From: Oscillospiraceae bacterium
GTDB lineage: Bacteria; Bacillota; Clostridia; Oscillospirales; Oscillospiraceae
Length of the DNA stretch: 64,000 nt
Assembly (NCBI GenBank): GCA_009780235.1
Contig: WRAK01000007.1
Coordinates: 7,847-71,846, forward strand
Direction: 5' to 3'
The translations under genes and the position numbers were made by a program. Below are positions 39,883 through 47,176 of this stretch, piece by piece; the stretch's first letter is position 1, and each line of letters begins with the position of its first letter. Below the pieces are notes generated by a model. The model was not told the DNA's origin. It did not search any database and saw nothing but the letters and a program-made list of their open reading frames with translations.

Positions 39883-40621
39883 GGCATGGGAACAGGAAAG
39901 GGTCGAGCGTTTAAACGCTGATATCGCCGGTGAGGCGGACGGCTACGATTGCGCCGAGTGCAAAAACAGAAGGTACTTCTGGGGCAGAAAAAACGGGTAT
40001 ACCGTGACAATGCCTTGCAAATGCGTTGATACACGAAGAGCTCGCCGCCGCATTGAAAAGAGTGGGCTGTCGCACTTGCTTTCAGAGTGTACGCTGGAAA
40101 ACTTCCGAACGGACACGGTTTGGCAACACAGTATGAAAGAGAAAGCTCTGGCGTTCCTTGATGACCACCGCGGCAAATGGTTCTGCGCCTTAGGCGTAGT
40201 GGGCGGCGGGAAAACCCACATCTGTACTGCGATGTGCGGGAAATTCTTAGAGCGTGGCCAAGACGTCCGGTACATGATGTGGCTGGACGAGGTTGTCAAA
40301 ATCAAGGCCGTTGCGATGGACGATGAAGCGAGGAGCCGCTTGGTGGAGCCGCTGAAACGAGCGTCTGTGCTGTACATCGATGACCTGTTCAAGTCTGAGC
40401 GAAACGGCACAATCTCGGCGGCTGATATCAAGCTTGCATTTGAGATTCTGAACCACCGCTATATCAACCGGGATTTGGTGACAATCATCAGTTCGGAGCG
40501 GTACATCGAAGATATTTGCGATATTGACGAGGCTGTAGGCAGCCGCATCTATCAGCGGACGAAGGAGCATGTTGTCGAGCTGGTGGGTGCGGATAAGAAC
40601 TACAGGTATAAAAGCCCTTGA
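39788..40621 (+). CDS. DnaC/IstB-like AAA+ helicase loader
   Basis: Walker A GVVGGGKTH and Walker B LYIDDL. GTG at 39788 sits 8 nt after GGGAGG. Confidence 0.72.
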   Translation: MLESILAAVPEHLRAGVSRELENVDLTQQGSEAWEQERVERLNADIAGEADGYDCAECKNRRYFWGRKNGYTVTMPCKCVDTRRARRRIEKSGLSHLLSECTLENFRTDTVWQHSMKEKALAFLDDHRGKWFCALGVVGGGKTHICTAMCGKFLERGQDVRYMMWLDEVVKIKAVAMDDEARSRLVEPLKRASVLYIDDLFKSERNGTISAADIKLAFEILNHRYINRDLVTIISSERYIEDICDIDEAVGSRIYQRTKEHVVELVGADKNYRYKSP

Positions 40622-40646
40622 GTTGCCGGGGCGAGGAGGTGTTGGA

Positions 40647-42053
40647 ATGAATCTAACCTATGGTGATTTTTTAGAGCAAAAACGTCTTGATTTGGCAGAT
40701 GGCGGATTTGGTGTCGAAAAAGGAATCCTTAACAGACGGCTCTTTGAATGGCAAAGGGATATTGTGGAATGGTCACTACGCAAAGGAAAGGCGGCTCTGT
40801 TCGAGGATTGTGGGCTTGGAAAAACTTTTCAGCAGCTTGAGTTTGCGAACCAAGTGTGTTGGCATGAAAACACCAACGTTATAATCCTAGCTCCGTTGGC
40901 GGTGGCGCAACAGACGAAGGCAGAGGGAGAGCGATTCGGAATATCGGTCAATATCATCGAAAATCAAGCCGATATTAAAAAAGGAATCAACATCACCAAC
41001 TATGAAAAATTAGATAAATTCAACTTTGGAATGTTCGGCGGCGTGGTTTTGGACGAAAGTTCAATCCTAAAGCATAGTGGAAGTAAAATTCGTAGGGAAA
41101 TAACGAAGATATTTTCAGGCACCCCATTCCGTCTACCATGTACCGCAACGCCTGCCCCAAATGACTTCATGGAAATCGGGCATCATGCTGAGTTTTTGGG
41201 CGTAATGAGCCAAGCGGAAATGCTGGCTACGTTCTTCGTGCACGATAGCGGCGACACGTCGAAATGGAGGCTCAAAGGCCATGCGGAGGGGAAGTTTTGG
41301 GAGTGGATTGCAAGCTGGGCCTGTGTACTTCAAAAACCGTCTGACCTTGGGTATGACGATGTAGGTTATACGCTACCCCCTCTCATCATTCACGAACATA
41401 TTGTGAAGTCAACCAACCTAGAGGACATTGACGGTCAAACCCTACTCATACCTCGTACGACAATGAGCCTAAATGAACGCAGAAAGGCGCGGAAACTAAG
41501 CCTTGAGGATAGGGTCGGCGTGGCGGCGGATATAGCAAATTCAATTGATGGGCAAGCATTGGTGTGGTGCGACCTAAACGCTGAGAGTGAGGCACTCAAG
41601 AAAGCTATCAATGGTGCAGTCGAGGTCAAGGGGAGCGACACTAATAAGCATAAAACTGAATCCATGACAGGCTTTACCGATGGAAGTGTCCGAGCATTGG
41701 TAAGCAAACCATCCATTGCCGGGTGGGGGATGAACTGGCAAAACTCCAATAACATGATATTCGTTGGCCTTTCGGACAGTTTTGAAGCGTACTATCAGGC
41801 TATCCGCCGCCAATGGCGATTTGGGCAGAAGAGTCCGGTCAACGTTCATCTTGTCATATCGGAAGCCGAAGGGGCTGTGAAAGCCAATATAGAGCGAAAG
41901 CAACGGGATACAGAGCGGATGACGCGGGAGCTTATCAAGCATACACAAAAAATACTACAAGCAGAAATCAGGCAGACCACCCGTATAACAGAGGGATATG
42001 CCGCGGCAGAGACCATGGTCGTGCCTGATTGGCTGGGGAGGGTAGCGGGATGA
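40647..42053 (+). CDS. SNF2/DEAD-like superfamily-2 helicase
   Basis: Motif I DCGLGKTFQ, motif II VVLDESS, C-terminal helicase-domain motifs. Confidence 0.72.
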   Translation: MNLTYGDFLEQKRLDLADGGFGVEKGILNRRLFEWQRDIVEWSLRKGKAALFEDCGLGKTFQQLEFANQVCWHENTNVIILAPLAVAQQTKAEGERFGISVNIIENQADIKKGINITNYEKLDKFNFGMFGGVVLDESSILKHSGSKIRREITKIFSGTPFRLPCTATPAPNDFMEIGHHAEFLGVMSQAEMLATFFVHDSGDTSKWRLKGHAEGKFWEWIASWACVLQKPSDLGYDDVGYTLPPLIIHEHIVKSTNLEDIDGQTLLIPRTTMSLNERRKARKLSLEDRVGVAADIANSIDGQALVWCDLNAESEALKKAINGAVEVKGSDTNKHKTESMTGFTDGSVRALVSKPSIAGWGMNWQNSNNMIFVGLSDSFEAYYQAIRRQWRFGQKSPVNVHLVISEAEGAVKANIERKQRDTERMTRELIKHTQKILQAEIRQTTRITEGYAAAETMVVPDWLGRVAG

Positions 42054-43069
42054 ACGTAGGAGTTATTGAACAGCACATAACTGATCGATTTGCGCTTTAT
42101 AACGGAGACTGTGCAGAGGTTCTCAAGGGCATCCCGGATAACACGATTCACTACGAAATCTATTCGCCGCCGTTTGCCAGCCTGTATACATACTCAAATA
42201 GTGACCGGGACTTGGGGAATGTCCGTAGCAATGATGAGTTTTTTACGCAATTCAAATTTATTGCGGAGGAGCTTTTCAGAGTTTTAATGCCCGGCCGCAT
42301 TATGTCGGTACATTGCATGGATATTCCAGCCATGAAGGAGCGGGACGGCAGAATCGGTTTGATTGACTTTCCGGGTCAGCTGATAGCGATGTTCGAGAAA
42401 ATAGGGTTTATATACCATTCCCGTGTCGCAATTTGGAAAGACCCGCTTGTGGAGGCAACTCGCACAAAGGCACTAGGGCTTATGCACAAGCAATTGTGCA
42501 AGGATAGCGCAATGTGCCGGAACGGGTTGCCGGATTATCTGTTGTCGTTCAGAAAACCCGGAACGAACCCGGAGCCGATAGCGCACCCTGGCGGGCTAAC
42601 CTCGTTTGCCGGAGAAGACGAACCGTGCGCTCCGAGAGTTGAGCCAACGATGAAGGATAGTGATAGGCACAGAAAGGTCAGCATGGTAAAGGAAGACCCT
42701 GTCTACTCGCACCACGTATGGAGACGGTACGCATCGCCTGTTTGGATGGATATCAACCAGAGCAATACATTAAACCGTACGAGCGCAAGAGATGAGAAAG
42801 ATGAGCGGCATATATGTCCGCTGCAACTCGATGTGATTGAGCGAGCACTCACCCTGTATTCCAATACAGGAGATACTGTATTGTCACCATTTTTGGGGAT
42901 AGGATCTGAAATCTATCAAGCCCTTAAAATGGGGCGAAAAGGGGTGGGTATGGAGCTCAAAGAAAGCTATTATCGTCAGGCCGTTCTTAATTGTGCCAAT
43001 GTAGCAGAAGAGGATCAGGTTTGTATGTGGACAGGCGAGGGAGCGGAGGGAGAGCCATGCGACACGTAG
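42050..43069 (+). CDS. beta-class N4-cytosine or N6-adenine DNA methyltransferase
   Basis: Motif IV SPPF is N-terminal and motif I VLSPFLGIGSE is C-terminal. ATGA overlap with the helicase. Confidence 0.82.
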   Translation: MNVGVIEQHITDRFALYNGDCAEVLKGIPDNTIHYEIYSPPFASLYTYSNSDRDLGNVRSNDEFFTQFKFIAEELFRVLMPGRIMSVHCMDIPAMKERDGRIGLIDFPGQLIAMFEKIGFIYHSRVAIWKDPLVEATRTKALGLMHKQLCKDSAMCRNGLPDYLLSFRKPGTNPEPIAHPGGLTSFAGEDEPCAPRVEPTMKDSDRHRKVSMVKEDPVYSHHVWRRYASPVWMDINQSNTLNRTSARDEKDERHICPLQLDVIERALTLYSNTGDTVLSPFLGIGSEIYQALKMGRKGVGMELKESYYRQAVLNCANVAEEDQVCMWTGEGAEGEPCDT

Positions 43070-44520
43070 GAGATATCACCGCCCTTCTCGGTCACGAGTT
43101 GGAGCCGGTGGACGTTGTAACCGGCGGTAGCCCATGCCAAGACTTGAGTGTCGCCGGGAAGCGTGAGGGTCTATCCGGCGAACGCTCCGGGCTTTTCATG
43201 GAACAAATCCGTATCATAAAGGAGCTGAGGCAAGCAGATGAGCAACGTAGAACAGGTCAGCCTATTCGACCCAGGCACATGGTGTGGGAAAACGTCCCCG
43301 GAGCCTTCTCCAGCAACAAAGGCGAAGACATCCGGGTCGTCCTCGAAGAAACGGCAAGGATTGCCGAGCCGGATGCCATTATTTCTAGACCTCCGGGCGG
43401 GAAATGGTCAACTTCTGGGTGCATCATGGGAGACGGATGGAGCATCGCTTGGCGAGTTCTCGACGCACAGTTTTGGGGAGTACCCCAACGTCGCCGTAGA
43501 ATCGCACTTGTCGCAGATTTTGGAGGCCAATCCGCACCCGAAATACTCTTTGAGCGAAACGGCGTGCCGGGGAATCCTGTGGCGAGCGGAGCGGAGAGGG
43601 AAGGAGTTGCCAGAGGAGTTGCGGACGGCATTGGAGGCACAGAGTACCTTTCGGGGTGGGATGTCCAAGACAAACGCATATTCAGCGGAAGGGGGGTCTC
43701 TCCAACCTTATCCGGATGCGACGGAGGCGGTGGAAGAAATCCGGCGGGAATAGTCTATGCAGGTTTCAACGGCCACAAAAGCATAACAGGATCTATTCAA
43801 TACGCAGAGGGCGTGTCACCAACGCTTGAAGCTAATATGCCGAGCAACATTTGCGAGATTTGCCGGACAGACCAGACAGGGAGTAACGGTCTGGGAATTT
43901 GCGAAGATATAGCACACACGTTAGACGGTGCTACGGGCAAAGCGGTTTTCGAGAGCCACGGCCAAGATTCCCGGTATAGGGGGCCGTTAGACGTATCGCC
44001 AACGTGTGCAAGGAAATGGGGAACGGGTGGTGGGAATGTGCCGCTAGTCGCAGGCATAGATTGCCGCAACCATTACGAGAATGATGGTGTGTCGGCTACG
44101 CTACAAGCGAAAGAGAGCGGGGGGCAAAGCCTGAATTATATCAATCCCGTAAGGATTGAGCAATCAGTCCGCCGCCTCACACCACTCGAATGCGAACGGC
44201 TCCAAGGCTACCCGGACGGGTGGACGGATATCCCGGACTACATACACAACGGAAAGCGGCGCACGGCCAGCGACACGGCTCGGTATCAGGCACTAGGCAA
44301 CAGCATCGCACTTCCGCCGTGGGTGTGGATCCTCGGGCGCATATCGGCGCAATATGGGCGCACCGCAACGCTGGGTAGCCTGTTTGATGGGATAGGCGGG
44401 TTCCCGCTGATTTGGGAGCGGATTAACGGCGGAGGGTCGGCGGCGTGGGCGAGTGAGATTGAGCCGTTTTGTATCGCGGTGACGGAGCATTGGTTTAATG
44501 GAGCAGGGGCGGTAATATGA
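43057..44520 (+). CDS. DNA (cytosine-5)-methyltransferase with permuted motif order
   Basis: GGSPCQDLS (IV), WENVPG (VI), QRRRRIALV (VIII), repeated SPTL target-recognition-like segments, RRLTPLECERLQGYP (IX), ALGNSIALP (X). Only after these comes LGSLFDGIGG (I) at the C-terminus. Confidence 0.82.
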   Translation: MRHVGDITALLGHELEPVDVVTGGSPCQDLSVAGKREGLSGERSGLFMEQIRIIKELRQADEQRRTGQPIRPRHMVWENVPGAFSSNKGEDIRVVLEETARIAEPDAIISRPPGGKWSTSGCIMGDGWSIAWRVLDAQFWGVPQRRRRIALVADFGGQSAPEILFERNGVPGNPVASGAEREGVARGVADGIGGTEYLSGWDVQDKRIFSGRGVSPTLSGCDGGGGRNPAGIVYAGFNGHKSITGSIQYAEGVSPTLEANMPSNICEICRTDQTGSNGLGICEDIAHTLDGATGKAVFESHGQDSRYRGPLDVSPTCARKWGTGGGNVPLVAGIDCRNHYENDGVSATLQAKESGGQSLNYINPVRIEQSVRRLTPLECERLQGYPDGWTDIPDYIHNGKRRTASDTARYQALGNSIALPPWVWILGRISAQYGRTATLGSLFDGIGGFPLIWERINGGGSAAWASEIEPFCIAVTEHWFNGAGAVI

Positions 44521-45359
44521 ACGGCATAATCCGAGTATTTCCGCAGCGTACATCATACACCCCAACGGACGGCTACAGTTTTATAGGCTCGCCGCCTCCG
44601 CTCTTCATACCAGAACATAAAGAAGTCCATATCTCCTGCATATTTACATGGGACAAAGCCGAATGCGAAGAGTTGACCTACCAGTGGGAGGGTCAAACAA
44701 ATAAGCCGGTCAAACTCGGCGGCCCGGCATACAGCTCACCGGCAGACGAGCACATCCCCGGCATGTACATCAAGCAGAATATTATTTTCACGACCCGCGG
44801 CTGTAACAATCGGTGCCAATGGTGCGTGGTGCCACGCATAGAAGGACGGCTCCGGGAGCTACCAATTCATGTGGGGAACATCATCCAAGACAACAACTTC
44901 TTGCAAGCCAACCGGGCGCACAAAGATAAGGTCTTCACCATGCTACGCACACAACGAGGTATTTGTTTCAAAGGTGGGCTGGATGTTGGTTTGATAGACA
45001 CTCACTTCATCGACAACATAACCGGCCTTCGCATTAAAGAGCTCTGGCTGGCTTGCGATACGGATGCGGCGATTCCGAGGTTCAAAGCCGCCGCCGAAAA
45101 GCTGGTAAAGGCGGGGTTCAATCGCGAGAAAATTAAGTGCTACGCGCTAATCGGCGACAATATGGCTGAAAACGAAGTTCGATTACGCGAGATATATCAC
45201 GCGGGGGCTATGCCGTTTGCACAATTGTACCGGGACTTTGGGGGCATGAAAACGGAGTACAGCAAAGAATGGAATGCGTTTGCCCGTTCGTGGCAACGCC
45301 CAGCGGCAATCGTCGCACACATGGAAAAAGGTACAGATTTTAGAGATTTCGGAACATGA
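44517..45359 (+). CDS. radical SAM domain protein
   Basis: TRGCNNRCQWCV contains the Cx3Cx2C cluster motif. ATGA overlap with the C5-methyltransferase gene. Confidence 0.6.
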   Translation: MNGIIRVFPQRTSYTPTDGYSFIGSPPPLFIPEHKEVHISCIFTWDKAECEELTYQWEGQTNKPVKLGGPAYSSPADEHIPGMYIKQNIIFTTRGCNNRCQWCVVPRIEGRLRELPIHVGNIIQDNNFLQANRAHKDKVFTMLRTQRGICFKGGLDVGLIDTHFIDNITGLRIKELWLACDTDAAIPRFKAAAEKLVKAGFNREKIKCYALIGDNMAENEVRLREIYHAGAMPFAQLYRDFGGMKTEYSKEWNAFARSWQRPAAIVAHMEKGTDFRDFGT

Positions 45360-45555: not shown

Positions 45556-45770
45556 GCGCATTAGATATGAGCTATGACGGAAGCCTTTATATGGCAGTAA
45601 CCCCGGACGAGTACGAGCTGCCTTTGGTCGTGGCCGCATCAGCGGCTGAATTGGCAAGGGTGTGCGGAACATCTGAAAGCAACATTCGAGTTCAGATATG
45701 TCGCGGATACAATGGGACGAATTCAGGCAGGAAATTTGTAAAAGTTGAGGTTAGAAGTTGTGATGAATAA
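45552..45770 (+). CDS. hypothetical small protein
   Basis: ATGA overlap with the upstream ORF, 72 aa. Confidence 0.4.
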   Translation: MSALDMSYDGSLYMAVTPDEYELPLVVAASAAELARVCGTSESNIRVQICRGYNGTNSGRKFVKVEVRSCDE

Positions 45771-46338
45771 AAGCGGAATAGGTTGCGAAAATCAGCCGAC
45801 AACCTCAAATGGAAAAACGCAATATCAAGATAGGGATTGGCTGAGTGAGCAATATCAATCGCTCAAAAGCATTTACGCAATCGCAAAAATATGTGGTTGT
45901 CATCCAAGGACGATTCACAGTTGGTTAATTAGGCATGGCATCTCACGAAATAAAAACCGGAACCATTCGGAGGAGACAAGGCGAAAAATGTCGATTGCAA
46001 ATAAAGGTCGCCCATCTGGTATGCTCGGGAAAAAGCATTCTGATGAAACAAAAAGAAAAATGTCCGAAGGAAGAAAAGGGCCTTTGAATGGGAATTGGAG
46101 AGACGGGGCGACTGAGAGGATTCGGAAGTTTCGCAGAACCAAAGAGTATATACGCTGGCGGAAGCAAGTAATAGAATCGGCAAATGGTAGATGCCAGAAA
46201 TGCGGTCTAGAACTCCCATTAGAGGCTCATCACATTGTTAGTATTCACAAAGACTGGGAGCTGGCGTTAGAACTATCAAATGGAATGGCGTTATGCAAAG
46301 AGTGTCATTTGAAAGAAGGTAAAAGGAATGATGAATAA
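45763..46338 (+). CDS. HNH homing endonuclease with NUMOD3 repeats
   Basis: Tandem HSEETRRKMS / HSDETKRKMS NUMOD3 motifs, then CQKCG...EAHHIVS...CKECH. Confidence 0.75.
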   Translation: MNKSGIGCENQPTTSNGKTQYQDRDWLSEQYQSLKSIYAIAKICGCHPRTIHSWLIRHGISRNKNRNHSEETRRKMSIANKGRPSGMLGKKHSDETKRKMSEGRKGPLNGNWRDGATERIRKFRRTKEYIRWRKQVIESANGRCQKCGLELPLEAHHIVSIHKDWELALELSNGMALCKECHLKEGKRNDE

Positions 46339-47176
46339 GAGCAAAATCGACTATGTTGATTTTTCATGGAACCCTGTAACCGGTTGTCGGCACGAGTGCC
46401 GGAACACATACTGCTACGCCTCAAAGCAAGGCAGACGGTTTTGTGGGGACATCCGGGCGAACAAAACCTCGCCACAGATTCAGATGCTAGACGGCGGCTT
46501 ATACATACTGGACGAACCGTTCAGGAATAGTGCCGGAAAGGTTGTACCTCTCCCGGCCGGGTTCGAGCCGACGCTCCACAAATACCGACTGGAGATGCTG
46601 AGCCGGAAAAAGAAGCCCGCCAACATCTTTGTCGGGAGCATGGCGGACGTGTTTGGTGAGTGGGTGCCGGATGAGTGGATTACAGCTGTATTTGATGCTT
46701 GCGCCGCAGCTCCGTGGCATAAATACCTGTTCCTTACGAAGAACCCGGCGCGGTACGGGGAACTCGCCGAAAAAGGTCTGCTCCCGGATGCTCTGAATAT
46801 GTGGTTTGGCTCCACGACAACGAGGCAGGAGGATATGTTCTGGTGGAGCAAATGCCATAACACGTTTGTGAGCATTGAACCGTTGATGGGGGTATTTGAG
46901 CCGCCGGATAATCCCATGAAGAAGGTGGATTGGGTCATCATTGGTGCTGAAACGGGTTGTCGCCGCGGCAAGGTCGTGCCGGAACAGGTATGGGTAGAGA
47001 ATATCGTCGTTGCCTGCCGGGAACTTGGGACTCCTGTATTCATGAAAAAGAACCTCGCTGCCGTGTGGGGCGAGCCGTTGATTCAGGAATACCCTACTAG
47101 GTTGAATGCACAGGCGAGAGACAATCATGAGTTCGACGAGGCCCGATTTACGGAGGAGGTGCCGCGCAATGAGTAA
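46328..47176 (+). CDS. phage Gp37/Gp68 family protein (DUF5131)
   Basis: SWNPVTGC.HEC..CYA, FVGSMADVF, FLTKNPARY, DWVIIGAETG. Confidence 0.78.
   Translation: MMNKSKIDYVDFSWNPVTGCRHECRNTYCYASKQGRRFCGDIRANKTSPQIQMLDGGLYILDEPFRNSAGKVVPLPAGFEPTLHKYRLEMLSRKKKPANIFVGSMADVFGEWVPDEWITAVFDACAAAPWHKYLFLTKNPARYGELAEKGLLPDALNMWFGSTTTRQEDMFWWSKCHNTFVSIEPLMGVFEPPDNPMKKVDWVIIGAETGCRRGKVVPEQVWVENIVVACRELGTPVFMKKNLAAVWGEPLIQEYPTRLNAQARDNHEFDEARFTEEVPRNE

Follow-up and report, generated by a model that had tools for sequence, protein, structure and literature searches.

The C5-cytosine DNA methyltransferases are a textbook case of a fixed order of sequence motifs, and the natural exceptions described so far keep both structural domains of the enzyme intact. 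Albert, Varga, Zsibrita and Kiss (2018; PMC5944983) made 21 circular permutants from the enzymes M.MpeI and M.SssI, with the active ones falling into ten types, and found those with a new N-terminus between motifs II and III, termed Class or Type B, to surpass all their other permutants in activity. When they scanned 20,677 C5 entries in REBASE, 27 natural permutants came up, every one with its cut in the variable region in the manner of M.BssHII, and the Type B order was stated not to occur naturally (PMC5944983). Here we describe a gene with the Type B order in a prophage region of an Oscillospiraceae bacterium (assembly GCA_009780235.1), found in a stretch of 64,000 nucleotides of the forward strand of contig WRAK01000007.1 (positions 7,847 to 71,846); this whole stretch is called the window below, and all coordinates refer to it. 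As the motif I pattern used in the 2018 survey would match the 'SLFDGIG' of the encoded protein, no such sequence can have been among the REBASE entries scanned, and a literature search, which left out many journals and REBASE, found no later report of a Type B permutant in nature. Measured against published work, the gene thus stands for a natural variant, not described before, of an enzyme class that is already known.

Motif order, recurrence and origin

The methylase gene and its parts lie in the window as follows, with residue numbers of the product in brackets:

43057..44520, + strand: permuted C5-cytosine DNA methyltransferase gene, motif order III-IV-VI-VIII-variable-IX-X-I-II
43066..43149, + strand: motif III VGDIT (4-8) to motif IV GGSPCQDLS (23-31), with the catalytic Cys27
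43282..43512, + strand: motif VI VWENVPG (76-82) to motif VIII QRRRRIALV (144-152)
43663..44136, + strand: variable region, for target recognition, holding five 'TL' modules of ~30 residues in tandem, delimited by an iterated hidden Markov model and clustering
44167..44319, + strand: motif IX VRRLTPLECERLQGYPDGW (371-389) and motif X YQALGNSIALPP (410-421)
44320..44367, + strand: junction, consisting of the helix after motif X and a short linker, WVWILGRISAQYGRTA (422-437)
44368..44517, + strand: relocated segment for binding S-adenosylmethionine (AdoMet), the C-terminus of the protein, with motif I TLGSLFDGIGGFPL (438-451), motif II AWASEIEPF (463-471) and helix B (472-480)

A sequence-only reading of the window had proposed a circularly permuted C5 methyltransferase, which is borne out by the motif order, by profile matches and by alignment with M.HhaI. 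The Pfam profile PF00145, for which that reading expected two hits in swapped order, is matched in three stretches of the 487-residue product with 117.7 bits against a cut-off of 22, and TIGR00675 with 113.5 against a cut-off of 100.65. With phmmer, residues 4-58 align with residues 58-112 of M.HhaI (motif III, GDIT, and motif IV, PCQ), 128-153 with 145-170 (VIII), 340-393 with 242-293 (the recognition 'TL' loop and IX), and finally 441-473 with 16-46 (I and II). The product thus follows neither the canonical linear order from I to X nor that of the M.BssHII kind, Type H, as its motifs IX and X come after motif VIII and the variable region. The chain is opened between motifs II and III, where its new N-terminus is, and its old termini are joined to each other, which is the arrangement of Type B. 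The break point does differ from that of M.BssHII, as had been read, but not by falling just before motif IV; the reading frame begins at the GDIT of motif III. Motif I does follow motif X near the C-terminus, at a spacing of 17 residues where about 20 had been given. Motif order is in any case no strict criterion for the C5 superfamily, the M.BssHII-type enzymes being accepted members.

None of the catalytic or cofactor motifs is broken, and none of them varies among 89 homologues. The catalytic signatures GGSPCQ (residues 23-28), ENV (78-80) and QRRRR (144-148) are accompanied by the AdoMet-binding signatures FDGIGG (443-448), E467, GD (5-6) and GN (414-415), and the residues of motifs VI and VIII do not vary in either of two alignments, A1 with 14 and A2 with 89 members. 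Within the relocated segment, S441, F443, G445, I446, G448, F449, W453, N457, W464, S466, E467, F471 and V475 are invariant in A2, and the C-terminal pattern 'T[LM]GSLFDGIGGFPLIWE..NG.GS..WASEIE.F.IAVT' is almost invariant in both alignments. The junction WVWILGRISAQYGRTA, which fuses the old C-terminus to the old N-terminus, is likewise kept in both as 'PPWRWVLKRLxAQYERxAT'. As four-fold synonymous sites in these motif columns are near saturation (1.6-2.0 bits) while the motifs themselves are invariant, the protein is under purifying selection, including the relocated motifs I and II.

The permutation is not confined to the window. A protein database search gave at least 8000 matches; in the best 120 of these, nearly all with 99% query coverage and with 44-59% identity, the order III-IV-VI-VIII-X-I-II was found in every one and an N-terminal motif I in none. 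IMG/VR contributes over 565 contigs that encode relatives, and 332 species genomes encode them as well. In open reading frames taken from stop to stop at the fetched loci, PCQ lies near residue 30, GNSI near residue 430 and FxGxGG near residue 460; 124 loci could be scored for motif I, 109 of them permuted, 15 canonical and none with motif I at both ends. The 109 permuted loci, which come from independent metagenomes, isolates and phage genomes, have motif I after motif X within the same frame, and no FxGxG segment resembling motif I lies within 900 nucleotides upstream of them, nor in the window between 42991 and 43056. When 88 residues spanning motif X, the linker and motifs I and II were compared with 1.84 billion cluster representatives, 901 representatives of clusters at 50% identity were matched at E<=1e-10; each of the best 150 was one collinear match, and nearly every one lay at the very C-terminal end of the protein. 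Because the identical junction recurs, within a single reading frame, in hundreds of independent assemblies, a collapsed duplication or a chimera is untenable, and a separate gene or misassembly is excluded. Partial matches joined over 'query residues 1-480' are by themselves no proof of collinearity, for which the order within the reading frame must be checked: Lachnospiraceae relatives with ~42% identity turned out on such inspection to be canonical. Permuted genes occur in cultured strains too, among them Gemmiger gallinarum DSM 109015, Intestinibacillus massiliensis Marseille-P3216 and Acutalibacter spp., including sp. 1XD8-33/36. The permuted order is no one-off; a large and monophyletic family of phages and prophages of gut Clostridia has it as its fixed architecture.

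How did this architecture arise? Non-permuted relatives, proposed earlier as a means of dating the rearrangement, were found among Dcm-type enzymes of phages and prophages. In the canonical Dcm of Streptococcus phage Javan261, whose N-terminal region reads MSRLTLGSLFDGSGGFPL...WASEVEPYTILITRKNIPSMKHLGDITKL, residues 5-41 match residues 438-476 of the window protein with 56% identity in a pairwise alignment, and M48 aligns with M1 of the window. The same canonical arrangement is seen in two enzymes from prophages, that of Roseburia inulinivorans DSM 16841 (...AVTMYRFPEMKHMGDITKL) and that of Anaerotruncus colihominis DSM 17241. The permuted protein can accordingly be written as the canonical one from about residue 48 to its end, followed by 'Y-E-R-x-A-T' and by canonical residues about 5-47, into which the helix after motif X leads through a linker of some six residues, its new start being a methionine that is already conserved inside the canonical relatives ('F-P-x-MKHLGDIT'). 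In a tree of 59 sequences and 382 columns (IQ-TREE), for which the canonical sequences were re-ordered beforehand to the permuted order, all permuted sequences sit on one side of a single branch (Shimodaira-Hasegawa-like approximate likelihood ratio test, SH-aLRT, 97), and one change of state therefore suffices; the nearest relatives are from Acutalibacter, Butyricicoccus and uncultured Oscillospiraceae. This indicates that the permutation was a single ancient event. Most plausibly it went through a tandem duplication and in-frame fusion, after which both outer parts would have been lost and the product inherited by a large phage family, along the lines of the permutation-by-duplication model of Jeltsch (cited in PMC5944983).

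What can be expected of such a chain in structural terms? An AlphaFold2 run with the 89-sequence alignment gave predicted local distance difference test (pLDDT) values of 85-97 for residues 1-165 and 370-482, and of 87-95 over the relocated segment, which has a beta-alpha-beta-alpha pattern. In that segment, strand 439-442 answers to canonical strand 1, helix 448-457 to helix A, strand 462-465 to strand 2 and helix 470-480 to helix B. In a Foldseek search, M.HhaI came first (E = 9e-6), followed by M.MpeI, DNMT1, MET1 and DRM, and the probability of 1.00 for M.HhaI, M.MpeI and DNMT1 identifies the C5 methyltransferase fold. Judging by confidence values and secondary structure, the C-terminal segment would pack beside strand 4, in the place of the canonical N-terminus. 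Since the N- and C-termini of C5 methyltransferases adjoin each other, the permuted chain would be expected to fold into the same Rossmann-type catalytic domain, with the old residues about 5-47 contributing strands 1 and 2, the latter with the acidic residue of motif II, as well as helices A and B and the FxGxGG loop. The chemistry would be the usual one, attack of the PCQ cysteine on C6 and methyl transfer from AdoMet. We infer that the gene very probably encodes a functional, naturally Type B-permuted C5 methyltransferase that is AdoMet-dependent and acts as a single chain.

Several points have to be held against this interpretation. No enzymatic or methylome results were found for any member of the family, and Type B permutants might bind AdoMet less well, as the authors of the engineered enzymes speculated (PMC5944983). 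The Foldseek alignments keep the sequence order and span only about 150-170 columns, and pLDDT is below 50 for residues 168-331 in the variable region, so that DNA recognition cannot be read from the model. As regards the origin, the junction columns may strengthen the split in the tree, given its re-ordered canonical sequences, and no duplication intermediate, with motif I at both ends, is present in the best 120 proteins or the 124 scored loci, which leaves the duplication route as one that is only inferred.

The variable region and its modules

The five 'TL' modules of the variable region occupy residues 203-229, 242-266, 274-294, 302-329 and 334-360 and are of types 6-7-3-0-1. They were searched for with an iterated hidden Markov model seeded on the window's own repeats, and have a core '[SA][PAH]T[LC]....GG' like the M.HhaI loop GIAITLSAYGGG. 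Members of the family carry 1-8 such modules, with a mode of 3, and clustering of 541 modules from 185 proteins yielded about nine recurrent types in 70 architectures. Types 0 and 1, found in about two thirds of the 185 members, are always the final ones, adjoining motif IX.

From the work of the Trautner group, Bacillus phages are known to carry multispecific C5 methyltransferases, namely M.SPRI, M.Phi3TI, M.H2I and M.Rho11sI. They resemble the window enzyme in having several short tandem modules between motifs VIII and IX that vary among related phages, but differ in that their modules have no detectable homology to those of the window; a tblastn search for homology of residues 201-365 to the target-recognition domains of Bacillus phages found no Bacillus phage record. 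The earlier suggestion of a multispecific enzyme like those of Bacillus phages is hence supported only in part, by the shuffled array of five modules of five types, and fails as regards a homology of the domains. The shuffling of modules across the family is compatible with interchangeable specificity cassettes, and five different modules would probably give more than one target sequence. Going by the modules, the chances that the enzyme is multispecific appear about even.

It is quite possible instead that the five modules repeat a structural unit within a single large target-recognition domain, which reads one sequence. Types 0 and 1, in their constant position at motif IX, may form the one true recognition domain, and this fits both with the missing homology to the multispecific Bacillus phage enzymes and with the AlphaFold model, in which no confident independent domains are seen. 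Harder to reconcile with a single specificity are the nine types in 70 combinations, the pattern expected of interchangeable cassettes, and the resemblance on sequence inspection of module 1 to the M.HhaI recognition loop RIYSTRGIAITLSAYGGG.

A second reading frame within the methylase gene

43238..43753, + strand: overlapping +1-frame open reading frame of 171 codons, its conserved part ending at about 43645

In its +1 frame, the methylase gene is open from 43228 on; an ATG with GAGG 7 nucleotides upstream stands at 43238, and a stop at 43751-43753. The frame encodes a conserved protein of ~140 residues with the consensus '...SLFD..TWSGKTSPE.S..T.EKTS..SSKK...PLFL.L...G....SWETDGALLGEYSMHSFGESP..AVES.LSQILE..PHPKYYLSAKACQGILRRAERRGKELP..L..AL' and the C-terminal pattern 'ES.LSQILE..PHPKY.LS..AC.GIL.RAERRGKELP'. 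All 76 viral loci have it open over 117-189 codons, 75 of them over 142-189, where the +2 frame reaches a median of 33. In 66/66 genome loci the +1 frame is open over at least 135 codons. It is present in canonical relatives as well, with 133 codons in Javan261, a low-GC genome, 156 in Burkholderia phage Bcep22, 145 in Enterobacter phage CobraSix and 163 in the dmt gene of coliphage P1 (L167:2483-2971), in all four in the +1 frame of the annotated methylase. The +1 reading frame is older than the permutation.

Is this frame translated, or merely tolerated? Synonymous shuffling is only suggestive, with p between 0 and 0.27 per locus and a mean of 0.063, the test being weak because the amino acids of the main frame themselves disfavour stops in the +1 frame. 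The entropy of four-fold sites in the main frame is decisive: its median is 1.7 bits outside the overlap and 1.21 inside (Mann-Whitney p = 2e-8), and seven four-fold sites inside the overlap have 0.13 bits or less. These frozen bases are the second codon positions of invariant residues of the +1 product, the T of P112 belonging to L50, the A of G141 to E81, the C of P143 to P83, and the sites of L151, V152, A153 and G156 to the run L-S-Q-..-E. We hold with high confidence that the embedded frame is a real coding sequence under strong purifying selection.

About 1,470 database proteins of ~140 residues, annotated as 'hypothetical', match the +1 product, and in both contigs examined (2/2) they overlap an intact methylase frame. 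The product has no match to a Pfam or PHROGs family, to a PDB sequence (best E-value 0.25) or, with Foldseek, to a known fold, and in its model only residues 90-140, forming three helices, are confident. A likeness of its 'YLSAKACQGIL' to motif IX, noticed by eye, is not supported, as comparison of the +1 profile with the methylase profile by hhalign finds no similarity.

Two loci show what becomes of the overlap in gene calls. In a contig from the Joint Genome Institute (JGI 3300045988, L165:2250-3500), the permuted frame is intact and lacks an ATG start ('..EF-TKHLGDIT'), and the gene caller took the +1 frame and a C-terminal fragment instead; pipelines mis-split such loci. In the Faecalibacterium phage FP_Toutatis (NC_047915, L001:3320-3330), a run of nine G at 'PPxGKW' shifts the methylase frame, so that gp14 consists of the main-frame N-terminus and the C-terminal part of the +1 protein, while the rest of the enzyme is gp15; this shift could be phase variation or a sequencing error. 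Some members of the family do have frameshifts at G tracts; the methylase of the window contains no such tract and is an uninterrupted single chain.

A precedent for a coding frame of this kind is M.EcoHK31I, in which an alternative frame inside the alpha gene encodes the beta chain, and activity depends on that chain (PMC2836561). Both genes have a second coding frame entirely inside a C5 methyltransferase gene, but the beta chain supplies the motif IX that the alpha chain lacks, whereas the main chain of the window has its own motif IX (residues 371-389). A literature search on overlapping genes in phage C5 methylases, which mostly did not extend to subscription journals, found nothing beyond the work on EcoHK31I. 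We offer only tentatively, as a doubtful proposal, that the product of the +1 frame is a dedicated partner of the enzyme, be it a subunit, an assembly factor or a regulator, conserved from the phages of gut Clostridia to P1 Dmt. If this were true, two-frame methylase genes of the EcoHK31I kind would be a widespread phage strategy and not a curiosity. Standard annotation misses the embedded gene, and well-known phage genes can hide second products.

A stricter version, in which the permuted chain would be inactive or unspecific on its own and would need the ~140-residue protein as a subunit, as in EcoHK31I, we regard as unlikely. In that case the 'L..ILE....KY.LS' element, which in many C5 methyltransferases follows motif VIII in the main chain, would come from the hidden protein. 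That the +1 frame is a real gene, by its openness and its frozen four-fold sites, and the precedent of M.EcoHK31I (PMC2836561) speak for such an obligate pair. Yet the main chain, unlike EcoHK31I alpha, already has motif IX and every other motif, and engineered single-chain Type B permutants are active alone. The hidden protein, for its part, has no detectable similarity to the methylase profile (hhalign), Pfam, PHROGs, or PDB sequences or folds, it is confidently folded only over residues 90-140, and its function could equally be regulatory or anti-defence. A methyltransferase that works as a single chain remains the reading we prefer.

Genomic setting and comparison with known systems

The methylase reading frame of 487 codons plus stop (43057-44520) lies within an open frame of 42991..44520 on the + strand, and its surroundings form a prophage block for DNA modification, with a helicase, a second methylase, a radical S-adenosylmethionine (SAM) protein, a homing-type endonuclease and a DUF5131 gene:

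40569-42053: SNF2-type helicase, upstream of the N6/N4 methylase
42029-43069: N6/N4 DNA methylase, PF01555, directly upstream of the C5 gene and overlapping it
43045..43059, + strand: GGAGG Shine-Dalgarno sequence, 7-nucleotide spacer and ATG (43057) of the C5 gene, read from the sequence
44517-45359: radical SAM protein of 280 residues, with CNNRCQWC; PHROG 9298, Pfam below cut-off
45745-46338: NUMOD3-HNH homing-type endonuclease, downstream of the modification genes
46328-47176: DUF5131 gene, PHROG 2045, overlapping the NUMOD3-HNH gene

The stop of the N6/N4 methylase (TAG, 43067-43069) lies past the start of the C5 gene, giving an overlap of 13 nucleotides, and at the other end the stop TGA (44518-44520) shares ATGA with the ATG of the radical SAM gene; the C5 gene is translationally coupled within the phage DNA-modification block. 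Its first methionine is conserved in at least 90% of the 89 sequences of A2. The phage thus has two coupled orphan methylases, N6/N4 and C5, downstream of the SNF2-type helicase, and the two together would methylate the phage DNA and guard it against host restriction. By analogy with orphan phage methylases, such self-protection is most likely the role of the C5 enzyme. The radical SAM protein may serve a further step of DNA modification.

Elsewhere among the relatives, two further loci carry additional segments. A Paludibacteraceae metagenome-assembled genome (L140:1459-3592) encodes a permuted methylase of 711 residues with an in-frame insertion of ~200 residues between motif IX ('RLQGYP') and '(Q)NWTDIGEW'; the inserted stretch has a motif of HNH type, IDHINNDKQDNRLCNLQLLTPGEN, and resembles a mobile endonuclease domain. 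In a metagenome-assembled genome of Clostridium sp. (L134:2940-5931), a relative in canonical order is fused at its C-terminus to a domain of ~300 residues with an 'SGGKDS' PP-loop, like that of 3'-phosphoadenosine-5'-phosphosulfate (PAPS) reductases, which suggests a coupled second DNA modification.

The setting also bears on whether the enzyme is a plain DNA methyltransferase. A transfer of another group, such as carboxymethyl, an RNA target, or a hypermodification carried out together with the radical SAM and DUF5131 proteins could be read from the translational coupling to the radical SAM gene and from the C5-carboxymethyltransferase 8yf3, which stands at rank 20 among the Foldseek matches. 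We consider this very improbable, given that the best matches in sequence and fold are ordinary DNA m5C methyltransferases, that the motifs are canonical, and that canonical relatives occur in many contexts without radical SAM or DUF5131 neighbours. That the C-terminal motif I is the start of a second methylase brought in by misassembly or a collapsed duplication, or that the reading frame is a dead remnant, has next to no probability: the motif order is unusual and the source genome is a draft (1.94 Mb, 51 contigs, ~92% complete, with the window from contig 7 and the methylase in single copy), but the junction lies within one reading frame in 109 loci and in about 900 clusters at 50% identity, the linker and motifs I-II keep their residues unchanged where synonymous sites have reached saturation, and the gene has a proper Shine-Dalgarno sequence and ATG, a conserved M1 and no motif I upstream.

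How, then, does this natural Type B enzyme compare with the rearranged and related methyltransferases already described? Its closest relatives by descent are the canonical enzymes of its clade, Javan261 Dcm and the R. inulinivorans and A. colihominis enzymes, and more distantly P1 Dmt and Bcep22 gp25. They have 35-43% core identity and share FWGVPQRRRR, ENVPGAFS, 'TL' modules such as ENHGQD.RY.GPL.V, and the +1 reading frame, but their motifs I and II are N-terminal, and the methionine with which the permuted proteins start lies internally at about residue 48. The plant DRM enzymes, which are among the Foldseek matches, also have a rearranged order within the C5 fold, but with VI-X preceding I-V, and thus another break point and lineage. 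The Type H enzymes M.BssHII, M.Alw26I, M2.Eco31I, M.Esp3I and M2.BsaI are natural permuted C5 enzymes too, explained by the same duplication model; their break lies in the variable region, with IX and X before I-VIII and both structural domains contiguous, whereas in the window enzyme the break falls within the catalytic domain, after II and before III.

Nearest in architecture are the engineered Type B permutants, which likewise begin in the loop between II and III and have their old termini joined directly or by a short linker. Those are laboratory constructs of CG-specific methylases from mycoplasma and spiroplasma, while the window enzyme is natural and phage-borne and belongs to another clade of C5 enzymes, and its variable region is long and modular. 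Nature, too, cuts inside the catalytic domain, and does so at the loop that engineers found most tolerant. The family offers natural tests of the permutation-by-duplication model and of the cost in AdoMet affinity of Type B permutants, as well as ready-made scaffolds for split or targeted methyltransferases. It is abundant in phages of the human and animal gut, and its specificity therefore bears on the restriction barriers between phage and host in the microbiome.

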